NCBI GenBank assembly: GCA_013361075.1 | Contig: JABWAJ010000001.1 | Span: 1-37,941, forward strand | Length of the DNA stretch: 37,941 nt | Reading direction: 5' to 3' | From: Saprospiraceae bacterium | Lineage (GTDB): Bacteria > Bacteroidota > Bacteroidia > Chitinophagales > Saprospiraceae | In this document: positions 2 to 31,269 of the stretch, piece after piece | Position numbering within the stretch: the stretch's first letter is position 1 | Layout: each line of letters begins with the position of its first letter | Program-made: the position numbers and the translations under genes | The notes under the pieces: generated by a model | The model's input: only the letters and a program-made list of their open reading frames with translations | Database searches by the model: none | Told to the model about the DNA's origin: nothing

Positions 2-250
2 GCGCAGACGCCTCCGGCGAGCGCGGGATCGAGCGGCGAGTGGGTCGGGTTCCTGCGCTCTCGTCCCGAGAACGGCGGGCTCGCGTACTCGATCGAGCAG
101 GGCTCGCGCGTGCTCGTCCGCATCGACGCCACGTCGAAGCGCTATCGGTGGACGGACTTCGTCGGGCTGCAGGTGCGCGTGCGCGGTCGCGTGAGTCAGT
201 CGGGCGCGGTGCCGACGATCGACGTCACGAAGCTCGAGATCCAGCGCTGA
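2..250 (+). CDS. 3' end of an unidentified gene carried on high-GC DNA (5' end lies outside the window)
   Basis: Frame 2 is open from the window edge to TGA 248-250 (...GEWVGFLRSRPENGGLAYSIEQGSRVLVRIDATSKRYRWTDFVGLQVRVRGRVSQSGAVPTIDVTKLEIQR*). Nearly every codon ends in G/C, the hallmark of the real frame in ~70% GC DNA. It is absent from the ORF track because it has no start codon in the window. No family recognised. Confidence 0.4.
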   Translation, partial: AQTPPASAGSSGEWVGFLRSRPENGGLAYSIEQGSRVLVRIDATSKRYRWTDFVGLQVRVRGRVSQSGAVPTIDVTKLEIQR

Positions 251-446
251 CGTTCGCGTCCTCGGGGCGCACCAGCGCGAGGACTTCGCGCGCGACCGTT
301 TCCGCGGCGTCGGGCAGTGCGAGGCCCAGAGCTCGCTCGCTCATCGTCGCGCGGCGCGCGTCGTCCGACAGCAATGCGTCGACGACACCAGCGAGATCGC
401 GCTTGTGCTTGACCGCGACGGCGCATCCCGCGCGGACGAAGAACTC
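225..446 (-). CDS. C-terminal fragment of a GT-B type glycosyltransferase (MurG / MGDG-synthase-like tail), high-GC origin
   Basis: Distal part of track ORF 225..866: ...EFFVRAGCAVAVKHKRDLAGVVDALLSDDARRATMSERALGLALPDAAETVAREVLALV... resembles the C-terminal tail of GT28-like enzymes (N-x-x-F-L-x-x-x-G-A-A ... L-L-x-D-x-x-x-R-x-x-M). Codons are G/C-ending. The stop at 225-227 overlaps the convergent + strand gene end by 26 nt. The upper boundary (~446) is where codon style changes, not a gene start. Confidence 0.4.
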   Translation of the reverse strand, partial: EFFVRAGCAVAVKHKRDLAGVVDALLSDDARRATMSERALGLALPDAAETVAREVLALVRPEDANVSAGSRAS

Positions 447-866
447 CTGATTGCGCGCTTCCTGGAGGCGTTCCATGTCGCGTTCATTGGCTTTGCGAAC
501 GACTTCCTGGGTAATGCTTTCTTCACTGGTTCGTTTTTTCTTCATTTGCATGCGCACCAGGTCTCCGCTCAGGCTGATCCGGCCCACATCGTAACCATTA
601 CCGGTATCTACAATGACCATATCACCGGTTGAGGCAGGCGACAAGTTGCGGAAAAATTGTTTCCGGGCGCCGTTTTTAAAGCTAACCTCTACAATTTCAT
701 ATCCATCTACATCGTAGATATCCATATCCGAGAGCCAGTCGAAGGTATTGAGGCGATTGCAGCCCCCGGTGGAACAACCGGTTGAGGCGCATCCGCCCTT
801 GCTATTGCATCCGGCAACTTTTCCGTCGCCGGTGCTTACTGAACATCCTAAACATCCCATTTTCAC
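447..866 (-). pseudogene. PSP1 (YaaT/RicT-like) domain protein, N-terminal ~140 codons only; the 3' half is replaced by foreign high-GC sequence
   Basis: Proximal part of track ORF 225..866: MKMGCLGCSVSTGDGKVAGCNSKGGCASTGCSTGGCNRLNTFDWLSDM...VEVSFKNGARKQFFRN...GDMVIVDTGNGYDVGRISLSGDLVRMQMKKK. This is the Cys/Gly-rich leader plus PSP1 core typically found just downstream of holB in Bacteroidota. The conserved C-terminal half of the family is missing. Confidence 0.6.
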
Positions 867-10507: not shown

Positions 10508-13300
10508 GTGTACGACCTATTTAAGCATAAATTTTTCAAAATATGGCTCCTTCTGCTCCCCGCAAGTAGCCCGCTCTTCCTGTTTGCTCTCGAAGCGCCC
10601 CGGGTCATCAATTTTTCCAAAGCGCAATACCAGGCACAAAACCAAAACTGGATGATTGCCCAGGACAACGACTGGCGCATGTATTTTGCCAATTCTGCCG
10701 GACTGATGCAGTTTGACGGCACCAAATGGAAAGTGCAACCCATCGCCGACCGACGTACACCGAGGGCCATTGTGTGCGACAAAAAAGGGCGCTTGTATTG
10801 GGGTGCTTTTGGGGCATTCGGGTATTCAGAAGGGATTGGTTCTCCGGAAAAAGAACATCAACTTTGGCGATTGCTGCGCGATACGGTAAGTGTGCAAAAA
10901 GCACAGCGCGAAGAAATCTGGAATATTTTGATACACAATGACTTTGTGTTGTTCCAGTCTTTTGCAATCATTTATAAATACTACCCGGAAACGAACGTAC
11001 TTGAAGACATTACACCACCGGGTAACATCATGTTTGTGCACGACCTGGGCGAAAAGCTGCTGGTGCAGGTCATTGGCAAAGGCATTTACGAACTCACCCC
11101 CCGCAATGAATTCATTTTTCAGGAAGGCACACAACAGCTGGGAACCGCCATTGTAAAAAGCATCCTTCCTGCCTCCGACGGCAGTTGCCTCATTGCCACA
11201 GAACACAACGGGGTATTCCGGTACGCATCCGGCTCCCTGAAAACCTGGAATGCCAACTTTGATGCCATTGCGCGCATCAACCAACTCAACAAAGGCATCC
11301 GGCTTGCCAATGGCAATTATGCATTCGGCACGATCCTCGACGGGGTCTTTATTCTGGATCCGAACGGCGCGCTCCTTTACCACCTCAATCGAAGCGAGGG
11401 GCTGCAAAACAATACAGTACTGGCTCTTTACGAAGACAACACCGGAAACCTCTGGCTGGGATTGGATAAGGGCATAGATTTGATCGAACTGAATTCCCCG
11501 GTGGTGTATTACACCGATAAAAAAGGCAAACCCGGGGCCGTTTACACCGCTGCCATTTTTGAAAATAATTTGTACATCGGAGCCAATCAGGGGGTGTTTT
11601 ACAAACCCTGGCCTTCTACCGGAAAAGATTTTCAGTTGCTGGAAGGCACACAGGGGCAGGTTTGGGAGCTTCGCGTTCTGGACGGGCAATTGTTGTGCGG
11701 CCACAACGAAGGCACTTTTGCCATTGCCGGAAAAAAAGTGTCAAAAATATCTTCCGTCACTGGCGGCTGGGTCATGCAACTCCACCCTACCCAACCCGAC
11801 ATCCTGCTGCAAGGTACCTATACCGGGGTTATTGTGTTGCGCAAAAACAAGGCTGGACGGTGGCAATTCTCCCACCGCATCGAAGGATTCATTGAACCAG
11901 TGAAGCGTCTGTTGTTTGACTCGGAGGGGTACGTTTGGGTTGCCAATCCCTACAAAGGCTTGTATCGGCTGAAGTTGTCCGAAAATTTGCAGTCCTGGAC
12001 TGAAATCAGGCCATACGGCACAAAAGATGGACTGCCTTCCGAATTTAAAGCCGATATTTTTCGGTTTAATGGTGCCCTGGTGACCCATTCGGCCGGAAAG
12101 CTGTTTTTTTATGACAAAAACAACCAGTGGAAGCCATTTGAACAACTCCAGGGGACGGGCAGGGCTTTTACGTTTGCTCCCGGCGAATGGTTTGAAGTGT
12201 ATGCAGATGAGGTGAAATGGGTGCGGGCCAAAAGCACTCATACCCTTCCCCTGTCGCTGATTCCGGATTTTGAAAGCATTTTGTCGCTGGGTGACGGCAG
12301 CTATCTTTTTTGTCTGGAAGACGGGTATGCACTGATTGACGGCAACCACGCCCGCCATAATTTCTCGCAAACACTCCCCCCGCCAATGATTCTGGAGGTA
12401 GGAATCGGGGGCCCCGACCCTCTGAACATTTATCTTGGCAAACAAACCGGAGAATGGGTTTTATTGCCCACTCAAAATGATTTTATTTTTCAGTTCACTT
12501 TACCCATATACACCAAAGCGCCTGATTTTCAATACCAATTAGAAGGTTTTTCTTCAGAATGGTCGCCATGGGGCAAAGTATCCGTCAAAGAATTCACCAA
12601 CCTGCCGCCGGGGAAATATACCTTCCGCGTCCGGTCCGGTTCTTCCGATGAGGTACTCAATTTTCCTTTTTTGATTCGTCCGCATTGGTATCAAACGGCT
12701 TGGGCGGCCTTGCTGTTTCTTTTGCTGGTGTGGATGCTGATTGCCATCGGCCTGGTTTGGCACCGCCAGCGGCTCGGAAAACAGCGCCGCCGCCTGTTGC
12801 TGGAAAAAGAACGCGAACTGGAACAACAGCGCATCCGGGCTGCCAATGAAAAACTGCAATCTGATGTCATTGGAAAAAGTCAGGAACTGGCCAATTCTAC
12901 CATGAACCTTGTGCGCAAAAACGAAACCCTGATGGAAATCAAAGAAGAGTTGGCACAAGCCAAATCCAATGCAGGCGGTACTTTTCCAACAGCCAATTAC
13001 CGCAAATTGCAACGCCTGATCGAGGACAACCTTTCTTCTGAGCAGGACTGGAAGCTGTTTGAAACCAATTTTAATCAGGTGCATGAGGCTTTTTTCAACC
13101 GCCTGAAAGCGCAATTCCCGGAACTTACCCCCGGTGATCTGAAACTCGCCGCTTATCTGAAAATGAATTTATCCTCGAAAGAAATCGCTCCCCTCCTCAA
13201 TATTTCCGTTCGTGGTGTAGAAAACAAACGCTACCGGCTGCGTCAGAAAGTGCATCTAGACAATGACGCCAACCTTACCGAGTTTATGATCCATTTCTGA
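10508..13300 (+). CDS. one-component sensor-regulator: two-component-regulator beta-propeller repeats + Y_Y_Y domain + TM + LuxR-type HTH
   Basis: 930 aa, GTG start per the track. Propeller-blade motifs (GLMQFDGTKW, NGVFRY, DGVFILD, NTVLALYEDNTGNLWLGLDKGI, QGVFYKP). Y_Y_Y region FQYQLEGFSSEWSPWGKVSVKEFTNLPPGKYTFRVR. TM helix AALLFLLLVWMLIAIGLVW. C-terminal HTH LTPGDLKLAAYLKMNLSSKEIAPLLNISVRGVENKRYRLRQKV. Confidence 0.8.
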   Translation: MYDLFKHKFFKIWLLLLPASSPLFLFALEAPRVINFSKAQYQAQNQNWMIAQDNDWRMYFANSAGLMQFDGTKWKVQPIADRRTPRAIVCDKKGRLYWGAFGAFGYSEGIGSPEKEHQLWRLLRDTVSVQKAQREEIWNILIHNDFVLFQSFAIIYKYYPETNVLEDITPPGNIMFVHDLGEKLLVQVIGKGIYELTPRNEFIFQEGTQQLGTAIVKSILPASDGSCLIATEHNGVFRYASGSLKTWNANFDAIARINQLNKGIRLANGNYAFGTILDGVFILDPNGALLYHLNRSEGLQNNTVLALYEDNTGNLWLGLDKGIDLIELNSPVVYYTDKKGKPGAVYTAAIFENNLYIGANQGVFYKPWPSTGKDFQLLEGTQGQVWELRVLDGQLLCGHNEGTFAIAGKKVSKISSVTGGWVMQLHPTQPDILLQGTYTGVIVLRKNKAGRWQFSHRIEGFIEPVKRLLFDSEGYVWVANPYKGLYRLKLSENLQSWTEIRPYGTKDGLPSEFKADIFRFNGALVTHSAGKLFFYDKNNQWKPFEQLQGTGRAFTFAPGEWFEVYADEVKWVRAKSTHTLPLSLIPDFESILSLGDGSYLFCLEDGYALIDGNHARHNFSQTLPPPMILEVGIGGPDPLNIYLGKQTGEWVLLPTQNDFIFQFTLPIYTKAPDFQYQLEGFSSEWSPWGKVSVKEFTNLPPGKYTFRVRSGSSDEVLNFPFLIRPHWYQTAWAALLFLLLVWMLIAIGLVWHRQRLGKQRRRLLLEKERELEQQRIRAANEKLQSDVIGKSQELANSTMNLVRKNETLMEIKEELAQAKSNAGGTFPTANYRKLQRLIEDNLSSEQDWKLFETNFNQVHEAFFNRLKAQFPELTPGDLKLAAYLKMNLSSKEIAPLLNISVRGVENKRYRLRQKVHLDNDANLTEFMIHF

Positions 13301-13551: not shown

Positions 13552-13947
13552 ATGGCAACTGCATTCATCTTTCTGGTTGTGGCTTTGGTCGCAATCGGGC
13601 TGGTAACAACAGTGGAGGGAAATGCAAAGCGCCGGTCTGAATACTATGAGGAAAGAAACAAAGAAGTTATTCCGTTTGATAAACGCAATTTGTTGCCTCG
13701 TGGCTACCAAGGCCGGGTTTTGGCTATGCCTGCCCACACTCAAGGAGTTTACGACGACGCGTATGCTGCCGCATACACCCAAGACAGAAGAAACAGGAAG
13801 TCAAATAGATCTGGCAACCAAAGACTTACAGCAACATTGCTGTTTTCAATGCTCATTATCATCACTCTGGCTTATGCTGCCATGCGCAAAAAAGAGCACA
13901 CAGCATCGAGCCCATTCAACAAGGCGGAGCTTTACCTTAAATATTGA
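13552..13947 (+). CDS. hypothetical small membrane protein (2 predicted TM helices)
   Basis: 131 aa. N-terminal TM AFIFLVVALVAIGLVTTV, a charged middle, and a second TM LTATLLFSMLIIITLAYAAM. Followed by a good terminator. Preferred over the overlapping 13622..13963 ORF. No family recognised. Confidence 0.45.
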   Translation: MATAFIFLVVALVAIGLVTTVEGNAKRRSEYYEERNKEVIPFDKRNLLPRGYQGRVLAMPAHTQGVYDDAYAAAYTQDRRNRKSNRSGNQRLTATLLFSMLIIITLAYAAMRKKEHTASSPFNKAELYLKY

Positions 13948-14282: not shown

Positions 14283-15653
14283 GTGGCCATGACAGCATCC
14301 AAGTATGTTTCAAGGCATCTCCCGCAAATTCCTAAGAAGGGGAAAAAAGAGATTCCTGCCTATCGGCTTCGTTTGGAAACGTACCTCAAAAACGAACTTA
14401 CGAAGCTCAAAAAACTGCACGTTGGGTCGCCCGACGATGCCCATACCTTTTTATTGCTGGACCGCAAGATCGCAGATAAACCTGTACGGGCCTTTTTTGC
14501 AGGTGAAATATTCGCGTTTATCCGGCGATCTGCCCAACAGGAAGGTCTGTTGCTGCATACGGAAGACTCCCATCTCTTCAGGCAGGTGATTCCTTTCGTA
14601 ACCGAAGTTGTCATTTCCATCCAGTATTTTCACAACCAGATACTGGACAGCAAAGCGGGGGTTACTTGCCGCAATAAAAAACAAATAGATCAAAACCTGC
14701 TTTCAGCTAACCTCCTCAAAGAATACCTCTACGAATACATCGAACAGGAAACTGCGCCGGAACACGCGGGGATCATCACCCGGTACGTACGTCGCATTTT
14801 TAAATATGTGGACGTCGGTCAGCAAACCGAAAAAAAATGGAATACTTACGAAAGCTTCGAACAGGGTTCTTACAAAAACAGGCAATTTCATCCGGAAATT
14901 GAAGCTTTTGCAAACCCGGAACGGGTGGCTCCCCTGCTGGAAACCCTGCGCAGGTTCTACCCCGAGCGCGGCGACTATGCAGATGCTTACCTGCAGCGCA
15001 TTGCACTCACTTCGGCAGCTTTGTTCGTACTTAATGCCGAAATGATCCTGGAATTGAGCGGATATACAGGCAACGCCCGGCAACCCATACTGGAGTTTGC
15101 CTGGTTTTATGGCATGATGCAACAAGTCATCAACGACAATGCCGATGTGGTGCCTTCCCGGTTCAACCACGAAACAACTGAAAAAACTGCCAGTGACGCC
15201 TTCAGCGATGCCCGCAACCACAATGTAACGCTGCCTTTGTTCCTGCATCTGGAAAACATGCGCCATGTACCGGAAAACTATGAACCTGACCTGGTTAAAT
15301 CCATCCTGCAACGCCCTTTCCATGTAACGCTGACCAACCGCGAAGAAGAACGGATGTTTCTGGAATTGAGGACTTCCGGTGCCCTTTACCTGTCGATTGA
15401 TATTGGCAAATATTTCGCAGCCATGGCGCAAAATTGTTTAACCGATGCTGCTTTGTCCGATTGTCAAAGCCTCTTGTCGCTGTGCGAAGTAGCAGACTGG
15501 AACCGATACATTTACGACTGTTACAACAAAAAGGATCCGCACAACAAACGACTGCGCAAACGCTATAAAGACAGCCCGCTTTACGCGGCCATGTCCGCAC
15601 TGACCGGGCATGCCAAATCAGCAGCCGTGCAGCATCAAATGGTCAATCCTTGA
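14283..15653 (+). CDS. trans-isoprenyl diphosphate (polyprenyl) synthase-fold protein with degenerate Asp-rich motifs; function unknown
   Basis: 456 aa (GTG 14283, or more likely ATG 14289). It is collinear with polyprenyl synthase landmarks. DKPVRAFFAGEIFAFI matches GKRxRPxL. EVVISIQYFHNQILDSK matches vELIHtaSLiHDDlxD. VGQQTE matches GQxxD. YLQRIALTSAALF matches YxxxIxxKTAxLf. FAWFYGMMQQVINDNADV matches fGxxlGxaFQIxDDxlD. KTASDAFSDARNHNVTLPLFL matches GKxxgxDlxxgKxTxPxl. FARM is H-N-Q-I-L-D (14631-14648) and SARM is N-D-N-A-D (15132-15146). Confidence 0.6.
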   Translation: MAMTASKYVSRHLPQIPKKGKKEIPAYRLRLETYLKNELTKLKKLHVGSPDDAHTFLLLDRKIADKPVRAFFAGEIFAFIRRSAQQEGLLLHTEDSHLFRQVIPFVTEVVISIQYFHNQILDSKAGVTCRNKKQIDQNLLSANLLKEYLYEYIEQETAPEHAGIITRYVRRIFKYVDVGQQTEKKWNTYESFEQGSYKNRQFHPEIEAFANPERVAPLLETLRRFYPERGDYADAYLQRIALTSAALFVLNAEMILELSGYTGNARQPILEFAWFYGMMQQVINDNADVVPSRFNHETTEKTASDAFSDARNHNVTLPLFLHLENMRHVPENYEPDLVKSILQRPFHVTLTNREEERMFLELRTSGALYLSIDIGKYFAAMAQNCLTDAALSDCQSLLSLCEVADWNRYIYDCYNKKDPHNKRLRKRYKDSPLYAAMSALTGHAKSAAVQHQMVNP

Positions 15654-15838: not shown

Positions 15839-18800
15839 ATGCCGGAAATTAAACTCAGGGAAATTGTATCCTTTGCGAACCAGGAGGAATTTCATGACCT
15901 GTTACTTGACCGCCTGCACGGGGCCATCCACCGGGTGCTCGACATTGATGAAGGCGACTACACCATGTTCATGGTAACGATTCCAAGGGGGCAGGACGTA
16001 GAAATCAACCCCTATTTGCAACAGGAACAGCTCATCTATGGGGGCGTGGACGCCCAGCGGCGACTGCTCGAAGCCGGCGTTGTCCTCAAAAACACGGCAG
16101 CCAGCTGGGATTACCTCAAATACGAAGAGTTCTACACCGAAGAGACTTACCTGACCCGCAATACATTCAATGAATTGGAAGCGGGGCAATATTCCATTGA
16201 AGACATTCCCGTGAAGTTTTCCGGCGACTTGTACGATTATTTTGCCGACCAGCGGGCTTCCCCGCCCGAAAACCCTCAGGCACCTGCCAACCTGAAAGAA
16301 GCGGAATACTGGATTCTGCGCGAACACTTTGATTTTAAGACGCGTTTGTCGGATAAATTCCTGTCGCTACCCCTGATTCAGTACCTCGAATTCGACGGGG
16401 TATTGCACTTTATTTACAAAAGAAAACATTCCAGAAAAGTCTTCCCGCAAGGGCTGAAAGACATTTCTGTGGTAAAAAAGCTGATCCGGGAATTCAACAA
16501 CCTCTACGACGAAATTATCCTCGATTGGGACATTGAATCCGGCAACTTCCAGAAGCGCGAAATTGTGGATAACATCCTGCTGTACAGCAATGACCCCGCC
16601 TTTCAGGAACGCAAAAACAGAAACCCGATCCTCCGCGAATTGCGCTACCTCGAATACTACCAGAACCACTTCCACTACTACAAACGCCGCGTAGAATATG
16701 GCCGGCAGGTGCCCGCTCTTTTCTATGAGCGCTATCTGCTGCAGGCCATCGTTCACATCCTCATTGACTCGTATGCACATAACGTGAGCGCGCATAGCTT
16801 AGTGGCACTCAATTGGTATTTCCAGTTGCGCTCCGAATATTACGGTCACGATGTGCACCAGCGCGATGCCATCTGGAGCGCCTACAAGTCGAAGTTATTG
16901 TCGGCAGTAGATACTGGTACTGGCTGGCGGCGCGATATGGCTGACTGGATCGAAGACCAGATTTTTGAAAACAGGGTAAGTGATGATGAGAACCTGCACG
17001 ATGTGGTGAGCCAACACCCGCTGGTACAGTACTCAGGGCGGTTGGACAAAGAAATCCATGTGTTGCTGAAGTTTATGCTCGAAAAGGGCGCTTTCTGGAG
17101 TGGGGTTACCCGTGACATCCATTTCGGCGGCAAAATCATTGGCCTGTACAGCCTGCTTTGGAACGATTTCATCAACAATCCACTCTACCTCGGCACCATT
17201 GCCCGCTCAGAAGGCATCGAACGCATCAACCTGAAAATTACCATTTTTGCCCCGGAAGGCCCAACTTCCTACACGCATGGCGCTTACCGCAATCCGAAGC
17301 ACGTTCAGGTGGAAGGCATTCTGGCCACGGTGGATCTGCGCCGCATCCGCAGCAAAGACGCTTCGGTAAACGGCAACGGAGAAGCAGAATACCTGACCAT
17401 GCCCGATGGAGAAAAATTGTTTTACGAAGACCACCCTTCGCTGAAAAACCGGAGCGTTTTTGTAGAACCGGGCCCCAACTACACCGCATTGAAAAAAGCG
17501 CTCAAAGCAGTGCGCATCTTTTTCCCGGGCGACCTCGTCGGCAAACACGCTTTCCTCACCATCCTGGAAAATGAGATTCGAAACGTCAAGCATTACAAGG
17601 GAGAGGCTTTGCGCCAAATGCACACAGAAGGACTGACGCTGAATATTTCTATTCAGGAAGCTTCGGTAAAGCCAGGTGCCCCAATCCATGAATTGTACAA
17701 AACCGGCATCTGGCTGGAAGCACCAACCGCGTTGAAAAAAGGACGCGACAGCGAAATGCCGCCCCTGATTACCCGAAAATTCAATGCCCTGCGCGGTGAT
17801 GTCATGAACTCAACGGAAGGTGAATTTTTGCCGCGACTCGGGGGCAACTACCAGGATAAAATCTGCGCCGCCATGTTGTTCAACAACCGGTTTGCCAGTG
17901 TGCAAAAAGGAGATACGGGTACCAGCCGAAGCAAAAATGAAGATACTGACCGCGACCGCGCGTATTACCCGTGGCTTATTCCGGCCAGTTGCCCGTTGCC
18001 TGACTACAGCGGCGTACACGACGATATGGAATTGAGCCTGCGGGAAGCGCGCAGAATTTACGGGTATTTCGACCGCCGCAAAGCTGCGGAAATCGAACCT
18101 ATGGCCAAAGCTTACCTTGAGGCATTTGAAGAAGCATATACCCAGGAAGTCGGCTACATCAAAAAATACTTTTACGTCTGGAAAGGAGAAAACCTTCACC
18201 GGCACCGGGAAACAACCGACCTGACCTGGGAAAACATCGGACGTTTTCGCTTTGTCTGCGTACCCGACAAATCGCCTAAAGCATTTGAAAGCGTTCGGCG
18301 GCAAGGTGTGGTCCGTATTCTGGAATCGAACGAAATCCGCCCGGAAGACAGCCTTACCCAAACCTACCACCGCTGGCTAAAAAAGTGGCTGGGCACTGAA
18401 AAACAGGTATTGCTGCTTCAAAAAGACAACAACATTGACGATGGTATGTTTGTCTTTAATCCATCCCCGGCAGAGGTGCTGCACTACTACAACATGCAGG
18501 AAACCATGGAATACCTGCAGGGCAACGGCCAGCCGGTGAAAACGACCCACCTGCGCTATGCCCACCGCGTGGATTCCGACACCGACCAGGAACGCATCAG
18601 CTACCGCAGCAATGGCATCCTGAAAACGTATTTTGTAGACCCCGCCTACCGCGCCGAAAAGGGGATTTCGCTGGGGCATATCCCCGCTGAACGCCAGGCA
18701 GAATTGTTCGAAACGCTGACGACCAAAGTATGCATGTTCGACAACCGCATCTGGCACCGCATCAAAGACCTGGGCCGTACCGATATTTACCGCGACATGA

Positions 18801-19255
18801 TGCACTTAGTTGTGCACAAAGAAGAAACACCGGGGCAGGCCGGCATGGAAGGCTTCCAGAACCTCTGGGAATACGAAAAGCAACACGCCATCAAGGAATG
18901 CCATTTTCTGGTGCTGCACCTGTCTTACATCGAACGTATCCTGGAAGAAAAATACGCTGGCCACCCCGCTTACACCGAAGGCGGCAACATTCAGCTTTTC
19001 CTTGAGCAGGAACTGCTGCCGGTGCTCACCGATCCGGAAACGGGCAAAATCCGCGACAATTTCATCCTCGTCATCACCACAGGCCGCGGCCGCATCAGCT
19101 GGTGGAAAGAAATTGAGCAGAAATACCCGCACTATACGTCGTTCATCATGTTCCGGACAGTGGAATCGCTGATTTCGAGTATTGAAAATGCAGTGGGGAT
19201 GAAGGATGATATTGAGTTGAAGTTTCGGTTGGTGAAGGTGTTGTTTGGGGCGTAG
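15839..19255 (+). CDS. 1138-aa uncharacterised protein with histidine-kinase/GHKL ATPase-like boxes and a receiver-like (pseudo-receiver) C-terminal domain
   Basis: Long uninterrupted ORF with native-looking codon usage. N-box-like ILENEIRNVKHY (aa 575-586, nt 17561-17596). F-box-like ITRKFNALRGD. G2-like RLGGNYQDKICAAML (aa 666-680, nt 17834-17878). Possible H-box DSYAHNVSAHSL (aa 310-321, nt 16766-16801). C-terminal alpha/beta pattern KVCMFDN (aa 963-969), FLVLHLS (His1027), ILVITTGRGR (aa 1076-1085). No Walker A and no recognisable nuclease motifs. Confidence 0.55.
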   Translation: MPEIKLREIVSFANQEEFHDLLLDRLHGAIHRVLDIDEGDYTMFMVTIPRGQDVEINPYLQQEQLIYGGVDAQRRLLEAGVVLKNTAASWDYLKYEEFYTEETYLTRNTFNELEAGQYSIEDIPVKFSGDLYDYFADQRASPPENPQAPANLKEAEYWILREHFDFKTRLSDKFLSLPLIQYLEFDGVLHFIYKRKHSRKVFPQGLKDISVVKKLIREFNNLYDEIILDWDIESGNFQKREIVDNILLYSNDPAFQERKNRNPILRELRYLEYYQNHFHYYKRRVEYGRQVPALFYERYLLQAIVHILIDSYAHNVSAHSLVALNWYFQLRSEYYGHDVHQRDAIWSAYKSKLLSAVDTGTGWRRDMADWIEDQIFENRVSDDENLHDVVSQHPLVQYSGRLDKEIHVLLKFMLEKGAFWSGVTRDIHFGGKIIGLYSLLWNDFINNPLYLGTIARSEGIERINLKITIFAPEGPTSYTHGAYRNPKHVQVEGILATVDLRRIRSKDASVNGNGEAEYLTMPDGEKLFYEDHPSLKNRSVFVEPGPNYTALKKALKAVRIFFPGDLVGKHAFLTILENEIRNVKHYKGEALRQMHTEGLTLNISIQEASVKPGAPIHELYKTGIWLEAPTALKKGRDSEMPPLITRKFNALRGDVMNSTEGEFLPRLGGNYQDKICAAMLFNNRFASVQKGDTGTSRSKNEDTDRDRAYYPWLIPASCPLPDYSGVHDDMELSLREARRIYGYFDRRKAAEIEPMAKAYLEAFEEAYTQEVGYIKKYFYVWKGENLHRHRETTDLTWENIGRFRFVCVPDKSPKAFESVRRQGVVRILESNEIRPEDSLTQTYHRWLKKWLGTEKQVLLLQKDNNIDDGMFVFNPSPAEVLHYYNMQETMEYLQGNGQPVKTTHLRYAHRVDSDTDQERISYRSNGILKTYFVDPAYRAEKGISLGHIPAERQAELFETLTTKVCMFDNRIWHRIKDLGRTDIYRDMMHLVVHKEETPGQAGMEGFQNLWEYEKQHAIKECHFLVLHLSYIERILEEKYAGHPAYTEGGNIQLFLEQELLPVLTDPETGKIRDNFILVITTGRGRISWWKEIEQKYPHYTSFIMFRTVESLISSIENAVGMKDDIELKFRLVKVLFGA

Positions 19256-21770: not shown

Positions 21771-22688
21771 ATGGGTAAAAAGAAAAATGGAAAAACAGAA
21801 TTTGTAAAGTGGTTTGGACCTGTTCTTGATGCATTGAGAGACTTAGGAGGTTCAGCTAAGCCGAGGGAAATTACTCAACGAATAGGTCTTCATTTAAATA
21901 TCCCAGATGAAATTTTGAATGAGCGGTATGAGAAATCAGGAGTTCTAAAATTTCAAAACCAAGTGGCCTGGGCAAGACAATATTTAGTTTGGGAGGAATT
22001 ACTTGAATCTTCAAAGCATGGTATTTGGACATTAACAAATAAAGGCTGGCAGACCAACCTTAGTGAAAACCAGGCACATGAAATTTTTATAAAATGGGTG
22101 AAAATTTTTCAAGAATTAAGAGAAAAAAAGAATATTGGGAGTGTTGAAACGGAAGCCCAAAAAATTATTCAGACACAAGAACAAACAGAACCTGAAAATA
22201 CACAGGTAAGTATTAGACCTACTTTAATTGACGTTTTACAGACAGTATCAGCAACAGGCTTTGAATATTTATGTGGTAGGCTTTTGAGAGAGTATGATTT
22301 TGAGAATGTTGAAATAACACAGCGCTCACATGACGGAGGGATTGATGGATATGCAACACTTAAAATAAATCCATTTGTAAGTCTTAGCGTTTTTTTTCAA
22401 TGTAAACGTTATAAAGGAACAGTTCCGACAGAAAAAGTTCAAGCTTTTATTGGTGTTATGGAGACGAATAAACGAAGCGTTGAAAAAGGGCTTTTGATAA
22501 CTACAGGCACATTTGCGAAAGCTGCTTATGAAATAGAAAAGTCGAACATAAAATTGGAACTAATTGATGGAGAAAAGCTTGTTGAAATGTTCGAAAAAGT
22601 TGAACTCGGCGTGAATCCCAAAGTAATTTATGAACCAGATTTAACCTTTTTTGAACAATACCGAGATAAATCAAAGAAAGAGGGCTAA
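21771..22688 (+). CDS. mrr: Mrr-type restriction endonuclease (Mrr_N winged-helix + Mrr_cat PD-(D/E)xK domain)
   Basis: 305 aa. N-terminal FVKWFGPVLDALRDLGGSAKPREITQRIG...FQNQVAWARQYLVWEELLESSKHGIWTLTNKG (Mrr_N). C-terminal FEYLCGRLLREYDFENVEITQRSHDGGIDGYA...FFQCKRYKGTVPTEKVQAFIG...GLLITTGTFAKAA (D...D-x-x-QCK core). Markedly lower GC than its neighbours. Confidence 0.85.
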   Translation: MGKKKNGKTEFVKWFGPVLDALRDLGGSAKPREITQRIGLHLNIPDEILNERYEKSGVLKFQNQVAWARQYLVWEELLESSKHGIWTLTNKGWQTNLSENQAHEIFIKWVKIFQELREKKNIGSVETEAQKIIQTQEQTEPENTQVSIRPTLIDVLQTVSATGFEYLCGRLLREYDFENVEITQRSHDGGIDGYATLKINPFVSLSVFFQCKRYKGTVPTEKVQAFIGVMETNKRSVEKGLLITTGTFAKAAYEIEKSNIKLELIDGEKLVEMFEKVELGVNPKVIYEPDLTFFEQYRDKSKKEG

Positions 22689-22697
22689 GATTTGGAG

Positions 22698-23183
22698 TTA
22701 TTCTCCTGCCAAAAGAAGCACCTCCTTTCTCAAAGCCTCACTCATCCAAAACCCTGCAAGTTTTTCAAGGTCGGTAAGAATGGAAGCAATTTCAGGAATC
22801 AATCCTTCTGATTTCGTTTTTAACAAAACTCCAAGCACCCCAATTGTCTTGAGTCCCATAGAATTCGCGATTTTCCAACCACGCCGTTCGTCAATGAGAA
22901 TAAAGTCGGCTTTCATTTCCATTGCCAACACGATGGCTTCACTTTCTCCCGGATCCAGTTGTTGAGATAACTCAGATACGGCAATTATATCTTCAGCAGA
23001 TTTTACTGTTATCCAAGCCTGATTGTTAATTGGTGAAATATCATAACCAAATTCGGCGAGTTTCGATAGTTCGTTAAGAACAGCGCCTGGCAAAATAATG
23101 TTACCAAAGAGTTTTTGCAGCAAATCTAATTTGCCAATAACGAACAAACTGGAAACGGGGGAAGCATCACTTACAACAACCAT
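22698..23183 (-). CDS. DUF3368 (PIN-like) toxin component of a type II TA pair
   Basis: 161 aa. VVSDASPVSSLFVIGKLDLLQKLFGNIILPGAV..EL, LDPGESEAIVLAMEMKADFILIDERRGWKIANSMGLKTIGVLGVLLKTKSEGLI match the DUF3368 consensus. Starts immediately after the antitoxin stop. Confidence 0.8.
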   Translation of the reverse strand: MVVVSDASPVSSLFVIGKLDLLQKLFGNIILPGAVLNELSKLAEFGYDISPINNQAWITVKSAEDIIAVSELSQQLDPGESEAIVLAMEMKADFILIDERRGWKIANSMGLKTIGVLGVLLKTKSEGLIPEIASILTDLEKLAGFWMSEALRKEVLLLAGE

Positions 23184-28870: not shown

Positions 28871-29063
28871 GAGACCCAGTACTCATAATCTTCCGATTGA
28901 GCCGGCAGGGAAAAGCAGACAAAGGAAAAAAGGAAAAAAAAGAGGGCCTTCATAATGTCGGGTATTTACGCAGATAAAGTCTTCACAAATTAAGTTTTTT
29001 TGCAAAAAAAAACCGAACTTTATTCGTGCCAAAGGGCGCATATTGTCGCCTTTTGAACAGATT

Positions 29064-29477
29064 ATGAAACGGCTTTTAACGATTGTTGCCGCCGTGCTTT
29101 TGCTCTTCAACGGGATTGGTGCCTTGTATGGTGGCTGGAGTTTAATGACATACCCCGACGGAAGTAATTTGCAACTACCTTTAGCCTGGCTGGAACACAC
29201 TCCATTTTCTGATTTTTTAATCCCCGGAATTGTCCTTTTTATTGCCAATGGTTTGTGCAGTATTTTTGTTTTTTCGGCGCTTTTATTTTCCTACAACAAA
29301 ACTGCTTTGCTGGTAATGGCCCAGGGCATCATCCTGATGGGGTGGATTGTTGTGCAGGTTTTACTGGTGCAGAAATATCATCCGCTTCAGTTACTTCTGG
29401 GAATTGTTGGTTTTTTGCTTTTTGTGACGGGGTGGGCGATGCGTAGAATCAATCAGAATAAGGAGGAGGGAAAATAA
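29064..29477 (+). CDS. hypothetical 4-TM membrane protein
   Basis: Track ORF 29043..29477 (TTG); ATG 29064 (MKRLLTIVAAVLLLF...). Four hydrophobic helices. No family recognised. Confidence 0.5.
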   Translation: MKRLLTIVAAVLLLFNGIGALYGGWSLMTYPDGSNLQLPLAWLEHTPFSDFLIPGIVLFIANGLCSIFVFSALLFSYNKTALLVMAQGIILMGWIVVQVLLVQKYHPLQLLLGIVGFLLFVTGWAMRRINQNKEEGK

Positions 29478-29898
29478 TTCACTGATGTTGTTCAAAGAGG
29501 CAAATAGCAAAGTTGAATTTTGTTTCGGGGCGTTCAGCGGTTTTTGGGGTTAAAGGCTTGTTCGGAAATCCATCAATTGACTTTGCTGAATCTTCAATTT
29601 GACTACAGCTGGCCAGCAGGCATTCGTTTGAAAAATATTTCAAATGTATTATTGTATTTAACAACAATTAATTGAGTTATTTTATTTATTATTTTTAAAT
29701 TTTATTTAAAAAAATTTTGGGAATAAATATTTTTGAACCTACTTTTGAGAATTCCTATCAACGAATCAGCAAAACTGTCCTGGTTTGAGGTGATTTCGTT
29801 TCAATATTTTTTTAAACACTCAACAAACACAATTTCATATAAACAAGCACTCGGCAAACACACCAAAGCCGATTTTTTCATTTAAACCATGCTTTCAT

Positions 29899-31269
29899 AT
29901 GAAACGAGTGTTTTTATTGTTGTCCCTTATGATTGGGTTCCTCTGCGGAGCTCAGGCAAATTCTACAATTGATTTTTGCGCAACGCCTGCGATGACAGGC
30001 AACACCTACTGTACCGGAGGAGAAGACTGTTCAGATTGCCTGGCAGACGAAGGCACTTTTCAGTGGATGCAATTTGGCCCGTGCTATCAGTATGGGTTTC
30101 GGCTTTCAGAGATTCCCACTTTAGGATGTTCGGGTTACTACTTAAATTACGTTTGGACAATTAATGGGCTTCCTGCGCCTGCCGGATTTTCTCCAACTTC
30201 GCGTTTGATTAATTTTACAGCCAATGGTACTTATACAGTATGCATTACCATACAAATAATACCAACGGGTAGTACAGAGCCTTGTCATTCCTACGATTTT
30301 TGCCAAACTGTAGAAATTAATTGTTTCCCTTGCGATTTACTGGATTGTGACAGCGTCATCATTACGAAAATAGACTCCAATCACGTCACTTTTACCATTC
30401 CTCCAACAGATTGTGAAACCTGCGAGAATCCGTATTATACCATTTCCTGGAAAAGAAAGGTAGATGATACCTGGAATGGAGGCGGATATTCGATTGTTGG
30501 CAATGAGGTTGACCTTTATTTCCTGGAGCCCTGTACGGAATATGAAATCCGTATTGAAATGAGCTGCGATGGCGAAGAAGGAGACATCATCACTTCCTGT
30601 ATTTTTGAATTTATGACAACAGGATGCGATAATGGGTGCCAGACCTGGCTTGACTGCAAATTTGTCGATACCGTTTACGTCCTCGATGATTTCATGGCGT
30701 TTGAATTCCAACCCATCGAAAAGTGTCCGAACTGCCCAAATCCTTATTATAATATCGGGTGGCGGGAATACTTGTCTGGCGATCCGTGGAATTATGGCGG
30801 TACTACTGTAGCACCTACTTTTGGAACCGGTACGATTTTTAGCCTTGATCCCTGCACAAGTTATGAGTTCATTATTGAGTTAAAATGCCCGGATACCACC
30901 ATTACGGATTATGAATGGCTTACTCCTACTGTTGCAGAATGTATTTTCAGTTACTTTACCACCGACTGTGTATTGCCCTTTGCAGCACCGGATCTGCCGG
31001 CTGCTCCCGCATCTTTTACCCGGATGATGGCTTTCCCGAACCCGGCTGTAGGCGAAGTAAATCTGCTCATCCTAAGCGATAAACAGGCAGAAGGGATGGT
31101 CCATATTTACAACAGCACGGGTGCTCTGGTGAAACAACTCAGCGCACAGACCAATATGACGCTGGAGGTGAGTCTGGAAAACCTGGCGCCCGGCGTTTAC
31201 CATTATTCGTTCACCGGAGAGACCGATGCCAATATTCGCATGGCTGGCAAGTTTTCCATCATGAAATAA
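29899..31269 (+). CDS. secreted Cys-rich protein with two FN3-like repeats and a T9SS type A C-terminal sorting domain
   Basis: 456 aa. Signal peptide MKRVFLLLSLMIGFLCGAQA. Two ~100-aa repeats sharing C(E/P)xC(E/P)NPYYxIxW(K/R)...(E/D)PCTxYE(I/F)xIE(M/L)xC...CIFx(F/Y)(M/F)TTxC. C-terminal FPNPAVGEVNLLI...VHIYNSTGALV...APGVYHY is the T9SS CTD. Confidence 0.75.
   Translation: MKRVFLLLSLMIGFLCGAQANSTIDFCATPAMTGNTYCTGGEDCSDCLADEGTFQWMQFGPCYQYGFRLSEIPTLGCSGYYLNYVWTINGLPAPAGFSPTSRLINFTANGTYTVCITIQIIPTGSTEPCHSYDFCQTVEINCFPCDLLDCDSVIITKIDSNHVTFTIPPTDCETCENPYYTISWKRKVDDTWNGGGYSIVGNEVDLYFLEPCTEYEIRIEMSCDGEEGDIITSCIFEFMTTGCDNGCQTWLDCKFVDTVYVLDDFMAFEFQPIEKCPNCPNPYYNIGWREYLSGDPWNYGGTTVAPTFGTGTIFSLDPCTSYEFIIELKCPDTTITDYEWLTPTVAECIFSYFTTDCVLPFAAPDLPAAPASFTRMMAFPNPAVGEVNLLILSDKQAEGMVHIYNSTGALVKQLSAQTNMTLEVSLENLAPGVYHYSFTGETDANIRMAGKFSIMK

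Follow-up and report, generated by a model that had tools for sequence, protein, structure and literature searches.

Few enzyme scaffolds are as well understood as the trans-prenyl synthase fold, whose two DDxxD motifs are taken to be diagnostic of it. One gene in a 37,941-nucleotide stretch of Saprospiraceae bacterium DNA (GenBank assembly GCA_013361075.1, contig JABWAJ010000001.1, positions 1 to 37,941 of the forward strand; hereafter the window) raises the question of what such a scaffold does when both motifs have been exchanged. An original prediction, made from the letters of the sequence, had recognized in the product of this gene a polyprenyl-synthase scaffold in which the two Asp-rich motifs and the KT lysine are replaced. 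We examined the protein, which we call PSL (prenyl-synthase-like), for its homology and fold, for the residues conserved in its family, and for the genes that accompany it, of which the most constant encodes a large protein that we call BIG.

Fold and motifs of PSL

The mechanical open reading frame (ORF) that contains the gene spans 14283-15653 on the + strand and opens at a GTG at 14283. The ATG at 14289 is the start in all homologues and in the gene callers, and residues of PSL (P0001) are counted from it. The gene and the regions of its product are:

14289..15653, + strand: PSL coding sequence (P0001, 454 aa), an intact ORF with a start shared by homologues and gene callers
14472..14495, + strand: region I remnant ADKPVRAF, aligned to GGKRIRP of IspB; a weak profile domain
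14604..14654, + strand: region II, EVVISIQYFHNQILDSK, which keeps the conserved Glu (E106) and holds the equivalent of the first Asp-rich motif (FARM) at 14631-14648
14817..14831, + strand: region IV, GQQTE (canonical GQxxD), with G177 in 137/142 and Q178 invariant
14844..14972, + strand: family-specific insertion of ~40 aa that separates the GQ helix from the one after it, with four short helices predicted
14988..15011, + strand: region V, YLQRIALT (canonical Y..RI..KT), with Y234 invariant and R237 in 134/142
15123..15146, + strand: region VI, QVINDNAD (canonical FQxxDDxxD, the second Asp-rich motif, SARM), with Q279 in 140/142, N282 and D283 invariant, and D286 in 141/142
15183..15236, + strand: region VII, KTASDAFSDARNHNVTLP (canonical GK....D...GK.T.P), with K299, D303, D307 (invariant), N310, T314, L315, and P316 conserved
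15507..15650, + strand: helical C-terminal extension of ~48 aa, past the IspB-alignable fold, which ends at ..WNR

The counts refer to an alignment of 142 homologues. A hidden Markov model (HMM) search of 1.84 billion representative proteins yielded at least 238 clusters (50% identity) with E<1e-30, and 142 of these were aligned for conservation counts; close relatives aside, the aligned homologues are 24-40% identical to the PSL of the window. A profile search of a 5.8-billion-protein set, subject to its word-index limit, made almost no additions.

On its own, the PSL sequence matched PF00348 with E 1e-4 and 22.1 bits, under the 27-bit gathering cutoff that a few members of the family exceed (29-32 bits), and it matched TIGR02748 (HepT) with E 1e-5. 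A search of the PDB with a 16-homologue profile found long-chain synthases, heptaprenyl and hexaprenyl enzymes among them, at E 9e-10, and the profile of all 142 sequences found heptaprenyl-, hexaprenyl-, and solanesyl-diphosphate synthases at E 1.4e-15 to 1e-9. Aligned by HHalign to Escherichia coli IspB, the 142-sequence family scored Prob 94.9% (E 4e-8), and the 316 aligned columns span IspB residues 2-322 and with them the whole fold. The AlphaFold2 (AF2) model of PSL (pLDDT 85, pTM 0.88) was in agreement with these alignments. The top 40 and more of its Foldseek matches were all trans-isoprenyl diphosphate synthases (trans-IPPS), nearly all of them long-chain enzymes, with E ~1e-6, prob 1.00, target-normalised TM scores of 0.66-0.77 (~0.75), and 385-430 aligned columns; a fused cyclase/synthase entry appeared first at rank 43. 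The terpene-synthase families of Pfam gave no match to PSL even at E<=1. In the model, PSL is thus predicted to adopt the all-alpha trans-IPPS fold with collinear regions I-VII. We conclude firmly that PSL is a remote but true homologue of trans-IPPS, from the long-chain branch.

The motif register was taken from the HHalign alignment to IspB and not from that to the short-chain enzyme IspA, because the latter was weak (Prob 7%) and misaligned in its N-terminal half. In region I only the Arg is conserved family-wide: R67, the second Arg of GKRIR, is kept in 140 of the 142 homologues, and the Lys of the motif is variable (40/142). In region II the stretch H-N-Q-I-L-D (14631-14648) aligned with H-D-D-V-V-D of IspB at a posterior of ~0.8, so that the DDxxD of FARM reads N-Q-x-x-D, with N116 in every homologue, Q117 in 118, and D120 invariant. 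The same region contains the invariant Y113 and the nearly invariant K122 (141/142), and at position 115 the homologues have H, D, or E. PSL has lost the RRG found after FARM; the RR of IspB aligns with V-T, and K122 lies nearby. The His of the isopentenyl diphosphate (IPP) site, H77 of IspB, aligns with I109, in an N-terminal part of the alignment where confidence is moderate.

Farther along, position 181 of GQxxD is E in 98, D in 35, and Q in 9 homologues, and the insertion that follows is reflected in a median spacing of 57 between Q178 and Y234 in the family. In the profile alignment to PDB sequences, YLqRIaLTsaaL paired with YLRRIkrKTALL, which places L240 at the Lys of KT; this position is Leu in 130 homologues and Lys in a single one. 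Likewise, QvINDnaD paired with QIIDDilD, and NDNAD (15132-15146) with the D-D-I-L-D of HepT and HexPS. The DDxxD of SARM therefore reads N-D-x-x-D, with N282 in 142/142, and the motif extends to N-D-x-x-D-x-x-P-S, in which N282, D286, and S290 stand at i, i+4, and i+8. In region VII, K..sD..sDlrN.nvTLP aligned with GKp.ggDLlqGnvTLP. Both motif helices of PSL thus carry an N-x-x-x-D pair where synthases have D-x-x-x-D. These replacements remove two or three negative charges, and the loss of the KT Lys and of the RRG Arg residues removes positive ones.

Set against the long-chain synthases (HepT/component II, HexPS-B, IspB, and solanesyl diphosphate synthase; PF00348), PSL has the same fold over ~385 aligned positions (TM ~0.75), with all seven conserved regions collinear, at a sequence identity of ~12-17%. 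Shared with them are the Glu of region II, GQ, Y..R, Q..-D..D, K...D...D, and TLP. PSL differs from them in NQxxD, NDxxD, and LT, in the absence of RRG, in an Ile that aligns with the IPP-site His, and in the variable Lys of GKRxR, as well as in the ~40-aa insertion between helices F and G and in the C-terminal extension. Its genomic partner, too, is of another kind, being an uncharacterised protein of ~1,100 aa.

These results confirm the observation behind the original prediction and support part of its interpretation. The scaffold it proposed was recovered by the PDB profile, by HHalign to IspB, and by AF2 and Foldseek, all with significant scores, so that the lack of a significant relationship to the fold, which would have refuted it, is ruled out. 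The peptides it quoted lie where it placed them (HNQILD at 14631-14648, NDNAD at 15132-15146), and profile- and structure-based evidence agree that both Asp-rich motifs and the KT Lys are replaced. A shift of register that would restore DDxxD was looked for, and both HMMER and HHalign kept N/Q and N at the Asp positions. Other details needed correction. GQQTE had been counted as an altered motif, and it is better described as a conservative version of GQxxD, given E, D, or Q at position 181. The extra residues, put at ~60 N-terminal and ~110 C-terminal, are instead distributed as ~20-45 at the N-terminus relative to IspB, ~40 in the insertion, and ~48 in the tail. The tail has a family median of 30 aa and varies in length and sequence. 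The Cys-rich C-terminus pointed out as a feature is not a property of the family: C383 is found in 16, C392 in 9, C399 in 49, and C411 in 18 of the 142 homologues, by which a Cys-rich C-terminal metal site is ruled out.

The conserved residues of the family fall in a telling pattern. Eight are invariant among the 142 sequences (Y113, N116, D120, Q178, Y234, N282, D283, and D307), and sixteen more are at least 90% conserved (R67, E106, K122, Y150, G177, R237, L240, Q279, D286, K299, D303, N310, T314, L315, P316, and N405). Without exception, these 24 residues map to canonical active-site regions I-VII or to the C-terminal end of the fold. The former active-site pocket is the most strongly conserved part of PSL, and the family, a sizeable one, is under purifying selection. 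With the replacement residues themselves conserved and the 24 positions so placed, the motif changes represent remodelling and not decay.

In the canonical synthases, catalysis depends on a trinuclear Mg2+ cluster held by FARM and SARM, with Lys and Arg residues clamping the diphosphates, and changes of FARM Asp to Asn or Ala cut the kcat of farnesyl diphosphate (FPP) synthases by orders of magnitude. In PSL, elongation should be abolished, since the Asp residues of the Mg2+ cluster and the diphosphate-binding Lys and Arg are replaced. Judging from these residues, canonical chain elongation by PSL is very unlikely. The original prediction had called it unlikely, and its case is strengthened by the loss of RRG and the apparent loss of the IPP-site His (H77 to I109). 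The conservation pattern argues firmly that a different, conserved pocket has taken the place of the elongation machinery; this pocket would be expected to hold a ligand of different charge and metal requirement. The fold of PSL is known; the invariant set x-N-Q-x-x-D-x-K plus Q-x-x-N-D-x-x-D has not been described previously, and literature searches returned nothing on this uncharacterised subfamily or its operon. The swapped motif set points to a new chemistry or ligand recognition for this fold, or to the first use of it as a sensor.

The PSL-BIG pair and its operon

A pattern scan of 185,579 species-representative genomes detected 37 PSL loci, in Saprospiraceae, Lewinellaceae, Chitinophagales, and unclassified Bacteroidota metagenome-assembled genomes (MAGs), and in the cultured Lewinella cohaerens DSM 23179. 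The patterns were strict ones derived from a 16-sequence alignment, so that 37 is a lower bound and no proof of taxonomic restriction. The loci nearest to that of the window belong to Saprospiraceae and Chitinophagales MAGs. Saprospiraceae are abundant in activated sludge and on marine particles, and with L. cohaerens there is at least one cultured carrier. The names given to the family in public databases diverge. RefSeq calls the L. cohaerens protein (WP_156825678.1) a 'hypothetical protein', and IMG has automatically named a member of a PSL cluster 'geranylgeranyl pyrophosphate synthase'. This label is almost certainly wrong.

The neighbour of PSL in the window is:

15839..19255, + strand: BIG, a 1,138-aa partner protein, directly 3' of PSL in 35/36 loci

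A BIG homologue lies directly 3' of PSL in 35 of the 36 non-redundant loci with enough sequence. PSL is genetically locked to downstream BIG, and we firmly expect from this gene order that PSL works with BIG. The typical operon, a tight one present in most lineages, reads PSL, BIG, a ~300-aa protein, a ~256-aa protein, and an NtrC-family regulator with REC and AAA+ domains that acts on sigma-54. Among 30 loci with sufficient sequence, the last three genes follow PSL-BIG in 23, or in 26 when divergent copies are included; they occupy 15151-18300 in L001, 12955-16140 in L025, and 14514-17713 in L047. This near-obligate pairing, together with the sigma-54 operon, is the most informative fact about PSL and one that the original prediction missed, and the five genes represent a whole conserved operon of uncharacterised biology. 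In the clade of the window (the window and L007-L010), the PSL-BIG pair stands alone and is followed by a formate/nitrite transporter gene.

The distance between the two genes varies widely. Divergent branches have the two genes overlapping or abutting: PSL and BIG were called with a 19-nt overlap in L047, and the spacer measures 1-45 nt in L018, L026, L027, L034, L037, and L043. In many other lineages, such as those of L021 (9249-9934), L012 (9264-9866), and further Lewinella-type loci, it measures 200-690 nt. No conserved ORF was found inside the long spacers. L049 (1587-12764) carries two tandem copies of the pair but only one set of the three genes that follow; the first copy encodes PSL and BIG paralogues of 591 and 1,055 aa, and the second a PSL of 391 aa and a BIG of 1,091 aa. 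An ~800-aa leucine-rich-repeat protein is encoded after the regulator in L047 and L049. On the 5' side of PSL, an lpxD-lpxC/fabZ-lpxA-ABC cluster is present in about half of the loci and absent in the window; it was treated as synteny.

Several components were searched for and not found. Searches by tblastn with IspA and IspB (E<=1e-3) detected no canonical synthase in the window or in ~40 related loci, nor did the Pfam lists of the neighbours of PSL contain a canonical prenyl synthase. No recognisable histidine kinase is encoded in the PSL-BIG operon, and no sigma-54 promoter (TGGCA-N7-8-TGC-like) was consistently matched 5' of PSL or BIG across loci. The phospho-acceptor region of the REC domain of the regulator looks canonical in the alignment consensus. 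With a normal-looking REC domain the regulator needs a phosphodonor, and none is visible in the operon. The ~300-aa and ~256-aa proteins had no match in Pfam, NCBIfam, or the PDB; both look like an alpha/beta N-terminal domain joined to a helical C-terminal domain.

BIG itself has more than 315 homologues, all unnamed, with more than 65 invariant residues that include His, Asp, Glu, Cys, and Arg. It found no match in Pfam, NCBIfam, PADLOC, or PDB sequences, and no Pfam family was hit by any of 41 members at E<=10. Its AF2 model (pLDDT 83) had no significant Foldseek match, the best having E>0.5. At that level three GHKL ATP-binding domains (CheA P4, the CA domain of DesK, and the ATPase of topoisomerase II) were listed, along with GAF/IclR-type ligand-binding domains and flavodoxin-like folds. 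By eye, BIG contains an N-box-like 'LENEIRNVKHY', invariant H314 and H319 in a helix of 57 residues, and a C-terminal (beta-alpha)5 domain with D968, H1027, T1080, and R1106-P1107 at receiver-like positions. The idea that BIG is a histidine kinase or a GHKL ATPase whose C-terminus resembles a receiver gained no significant support from Pfam, PDB profiles, or HHalign, and was kept as a lead only. Membership in a known anti-phage defence system was also rejected: PADLOC models matched neither PSL nor BIG at E<=1, and the synteny of the pair is chromosomal and conserved.

Candidate functions of PSL

Our tentative preference goes to a reading in which PSL is a ligand-binding partner of BIG that feeds into the sigma-54 response regulator; it is quite possible, and we stop short of calling it probable. 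PSL would no longer condense IPP. Its remodelled pocket, made of the two N-x-x-x-D pairs and the retained Arg67, Lys122, Arg237, Lys299, Gln178, and Gln279, would bind an anionic amphiphilic ligand. The simplest guess is a polyprenyl (di)phosphate or some phosphorylated relative of it, held by fewer Mg2+ ions than the three of canonical enzymes. In this role PSL would sense the ligand on behalf of BIG, which might in turn, as guessed from its motifs, set the phosphorylation state of the sigma-54 activator whose gene closes the operon. In the lineage of the window only the PSL-BIG pair would have stayed together. We favour this reading because the operon is built around a regulator without a kinase, because PSL-BIG duplicates as a unit 5' of one regulator in the manner of sensor modules, and because every catalytic precedent for the fold keeps the first DDxxD. 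A more specific form, namely a new cytoplasmic signalling pair in which an isoprenoid-synthase-fold sensor is docked on an unorthodox ATPase or kinase of ~1,100 aa that has no detectable kinship with histidine kinases and controls an NtrC-type activator, seems unlikely. If it were true, it would amount to a pathway akin to two-component systems in which both the input and the transmitter are entirely new, acting through two further uncharacterised proteins, and the ligand sensed could be, for example, polyprenyl phosphate pools tied to envelope synthesis.

A number of observations weigh against a sensor. The choice of a sensor over an enzyme comes from operon context only, and a strictly conserved polar pocket is equally to be expected of a new enzyme. 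To our knowledge, no sensor protein with the trans-IPPS fold is known. The kinase-like nature of BIG is without statistical support: HHalign of BIG against CheA, BtsS, NtrB, NtrC, and a REC profile (30 sequences, built from the operon's own regulators) gave Prob <1% throughout. Moreover, the regulator and the two small genes are not adjacent to PSL-BIG in the clade of the window, and locus L002 has PSL without BIG.

The rival that deserves most attention is a new enzyme, which we regard as possible and as only slightly less likely than the sensor. PSL would still ionise or transfer a prenyl diphosphate, or act on another phosphorylated substrate, through a reduced metal site formed by N116/D120 and N282/D283/D286. 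In place of head-to-tail elongation, it might cyclise or hydrolyse the substrate in the manner of a terpene synthase, couple units irregularly, or pass a prenyl group to an acceptor other than IPP. The same pathway would draw on BIG and the two small proteins as further enzymes or carriers, with the sigma-54 regulator doing no more than controlling the operon. In favour of this reading, polar and charged residues are strictly conserved at just those positions that used to be catalytic, and BIG has many invariant residues, including His, Asp, Glu, Cys, and Arg, as in enzymes. Class I terpene cyclases have DDxxD on helix D and an NSE/DTE triad on helix H, and the spacing of N282, D286, and S290 may be compared with that triad; PSL differs from them in having NQxxD as its first motif, and its second, NDxxDxxPS, would be NSE-like in spacing only. 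The original prediction had offered these cyclases as a precedent, which fits poorly, since they keep the first DDxxD, the most altered motif in PSL; the terpene-synthase HMM comparison that it called for yielded no Pfam match at E<=1, and this too counts against a new enzyme. Chrysanthemyl diphosphate synthase (mentioned in bioRxiv 10.1101/169417) is an active enzyme with NDxxD as its second motif, and its FARM is canonical. UbiA and NphB prenyltransferases are active with NDxxD motifs (PMC7839719), in folds unrelated to that of PSL, and none of the three combines NQxxD with NDxxD as PSL does. New chemistry has arisen on trans-IPPS folds, in insect terpene synthases (PMC6140472) and in Ord1, XiaM, and ComQ (PMC12510300). 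The insect enzymes, derived from isoprenyl diphosphate synthases, have the fold of FPP and geranylgeranyl diphosphate synthases, have lost IPP binding (KKxR replaced) and gained a new activity, and they retain both FARM and SARM (PMC6140472); PSL, by contrast, alters both motifs, is bacterial, and comes from the long-chain branch. ComQ, XiaM, and Ord1 were recruited away from elongation with a degenerate 'pseudo-SARM' and keep an intact FARM (D85, D86, and D89 in Ord1) that binds Mg2+-diphosphate (PMC12510300), whereas PSL has lost exactly FARM. The characterised precedents all keep a first DDxxD, the motif from which ionisation of the diphosphate starts (PMC6140472, PMC12510300), where essentially all PSL members have Asn and Gln for its first two Asp; the diphosphate-binding Lys and Arg of KT and RRG are gone from PSL as well, and no partner in its operon resembles a known biosynthetic enzyme.

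The remaining alternatives are weaker still. A regulatory subunit of a heteromeric prenyl synthase, of the HepS, HexA, or geranyl diphosphate synthase (GPPS) small-subunit type, with its catalytic partner encoded elsewhere and its role the tuning of that partner's product length, is improbable. PSL does have the family fold with non-canonical Asp-rich motifs. The known subunits of this type are small proteins with poorly conserved pockets, and their genes adjoin that of the catalytic subunit; PSL is a long protein whose pocket is highly conserved and whose gene has no synthase gene beside it. Synthases that work with a motif-less partner are well documented, and HepS, HexA, and the GPPS small subunit are indeed fold members or relatives without DDxxD that are not catalytic alone (PMC7839719). 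PSL, however, exceeds catalytic subunits in size, is conserved above all in its pocket, and matches the catalytic component II, not component I; its constant neighbour is BIG, no IspA/IspB-like gene being found in the window or in ~40 loci. The small non-catalytic subunits named as a precedent in the original prediction are accordingly a poor fit. An ordinary chain-elongating trans-prenyl diphosphate synthase with unusual motifs is very improbable. In its favour are the weak similarity to PF00348 and TIGR02748, the members that reach 29-32 bits, and the automatic IMG name. Against it, FARM D1 and D2, SARM D1, the KT Lys, RRG, and apparently the IPP-site His are replaced in register, FARM Asp changes are known from general enzymology to slash kcat, and RefSeq has only 'hypothetical protein'. 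Chance resemblance or a decaying pseudogene, to which the sub-threshold Pfam score of the single sequence might have led, can be dismissed. The profile, HHalign, and structure matches are significant, the frame is intact, and hundreds of homologues share the invariant residues and the synteny.

A resemblance to quorum-sensing loci was considered separately from these. The ComQXPA operon, which joins ComQ to a sensor kinase and a response regulator, superficially resembles the order PSL-BIG-...-regulator. PSL operons differ from it in that there is no conserved small peptide gene between PSL and BIG, in that BIG is without a detectable histidine-kinase domain (no HisKA or HATPase match), and in that the regulator is a sigma-54 activator and not of the ComA type. 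A ComQXPA-type pheromone system was rejected on the lack of a conserved spacer ORF (the spacer is 1-45 nt in several lineages) and on the loss of FARM.

Other features of the window

The window has the look of ordinary chromosomal DNA from a bacterium of the Bacteroidota, of Saprospiraceae type. It includes genes for the DNA polymerase III delta' subunit, RsmG, and a pseudouridine synthase, and for Wzz-like, O-antigen-ligase-like, and type IX secretion system (T9SS)-sorted proteins, as well as for a Y_Y_Y/LuxR regulator, a formate/nitrite transporter, Mrr, and a MutS-like protein. Rfam and tRNA scans of the window found nothing, and a scan for sigma-70 promoters and terminators returned background levels only.

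Upstream of PSL lies a further small ORF:

13552..13947, + strand: possible accessory ORF of 131 aa, with hydrophobic N- and C-terminal segments and a charged middle

This ORF is 67-89% conserved upstream of PSL in the closest relatives (L007-L009), and it is uncertain whether it is part of the PSL-BIG unit. A 101-aa ORF in L001 (9275-9580) has a similar layout with no detectable sequence similarity, and it holds the same place 5' of PSL in the clade of L001, L012, and L017. Farther upstream in the window, 10508-13300 (+) encodes a 930-aa Y_Y_Y/two-component-propeller protein with a C-terminal LuxR/GerE-type helix-turn-helix; it is kept 5' of PSL in the clade of the window (L008, L009) and is absent from that place in other clades.

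At 21771-23183 an Mrr-type restriction endonuclease gene (Mrr_N and Mrr_cat) adjoins a gene for a DUF3368 protein on the opposite strand. The GC content of this segment is 0.37 at 22-23 kb against ~0.49 elsewhere in the window, pointing to a small islet of acquired DNA. Low GC (0.38) recurs at 29001-30000, just 5' of a T9SS-sorted (Por_Secre_tail) gene at 29899-31269. Near the start of the window, a 213-aa ORF at 225-866 (-) gave a weak, sub-threshold match to STALD (Sir2/TIR-associated SLOG) with E 0.003.

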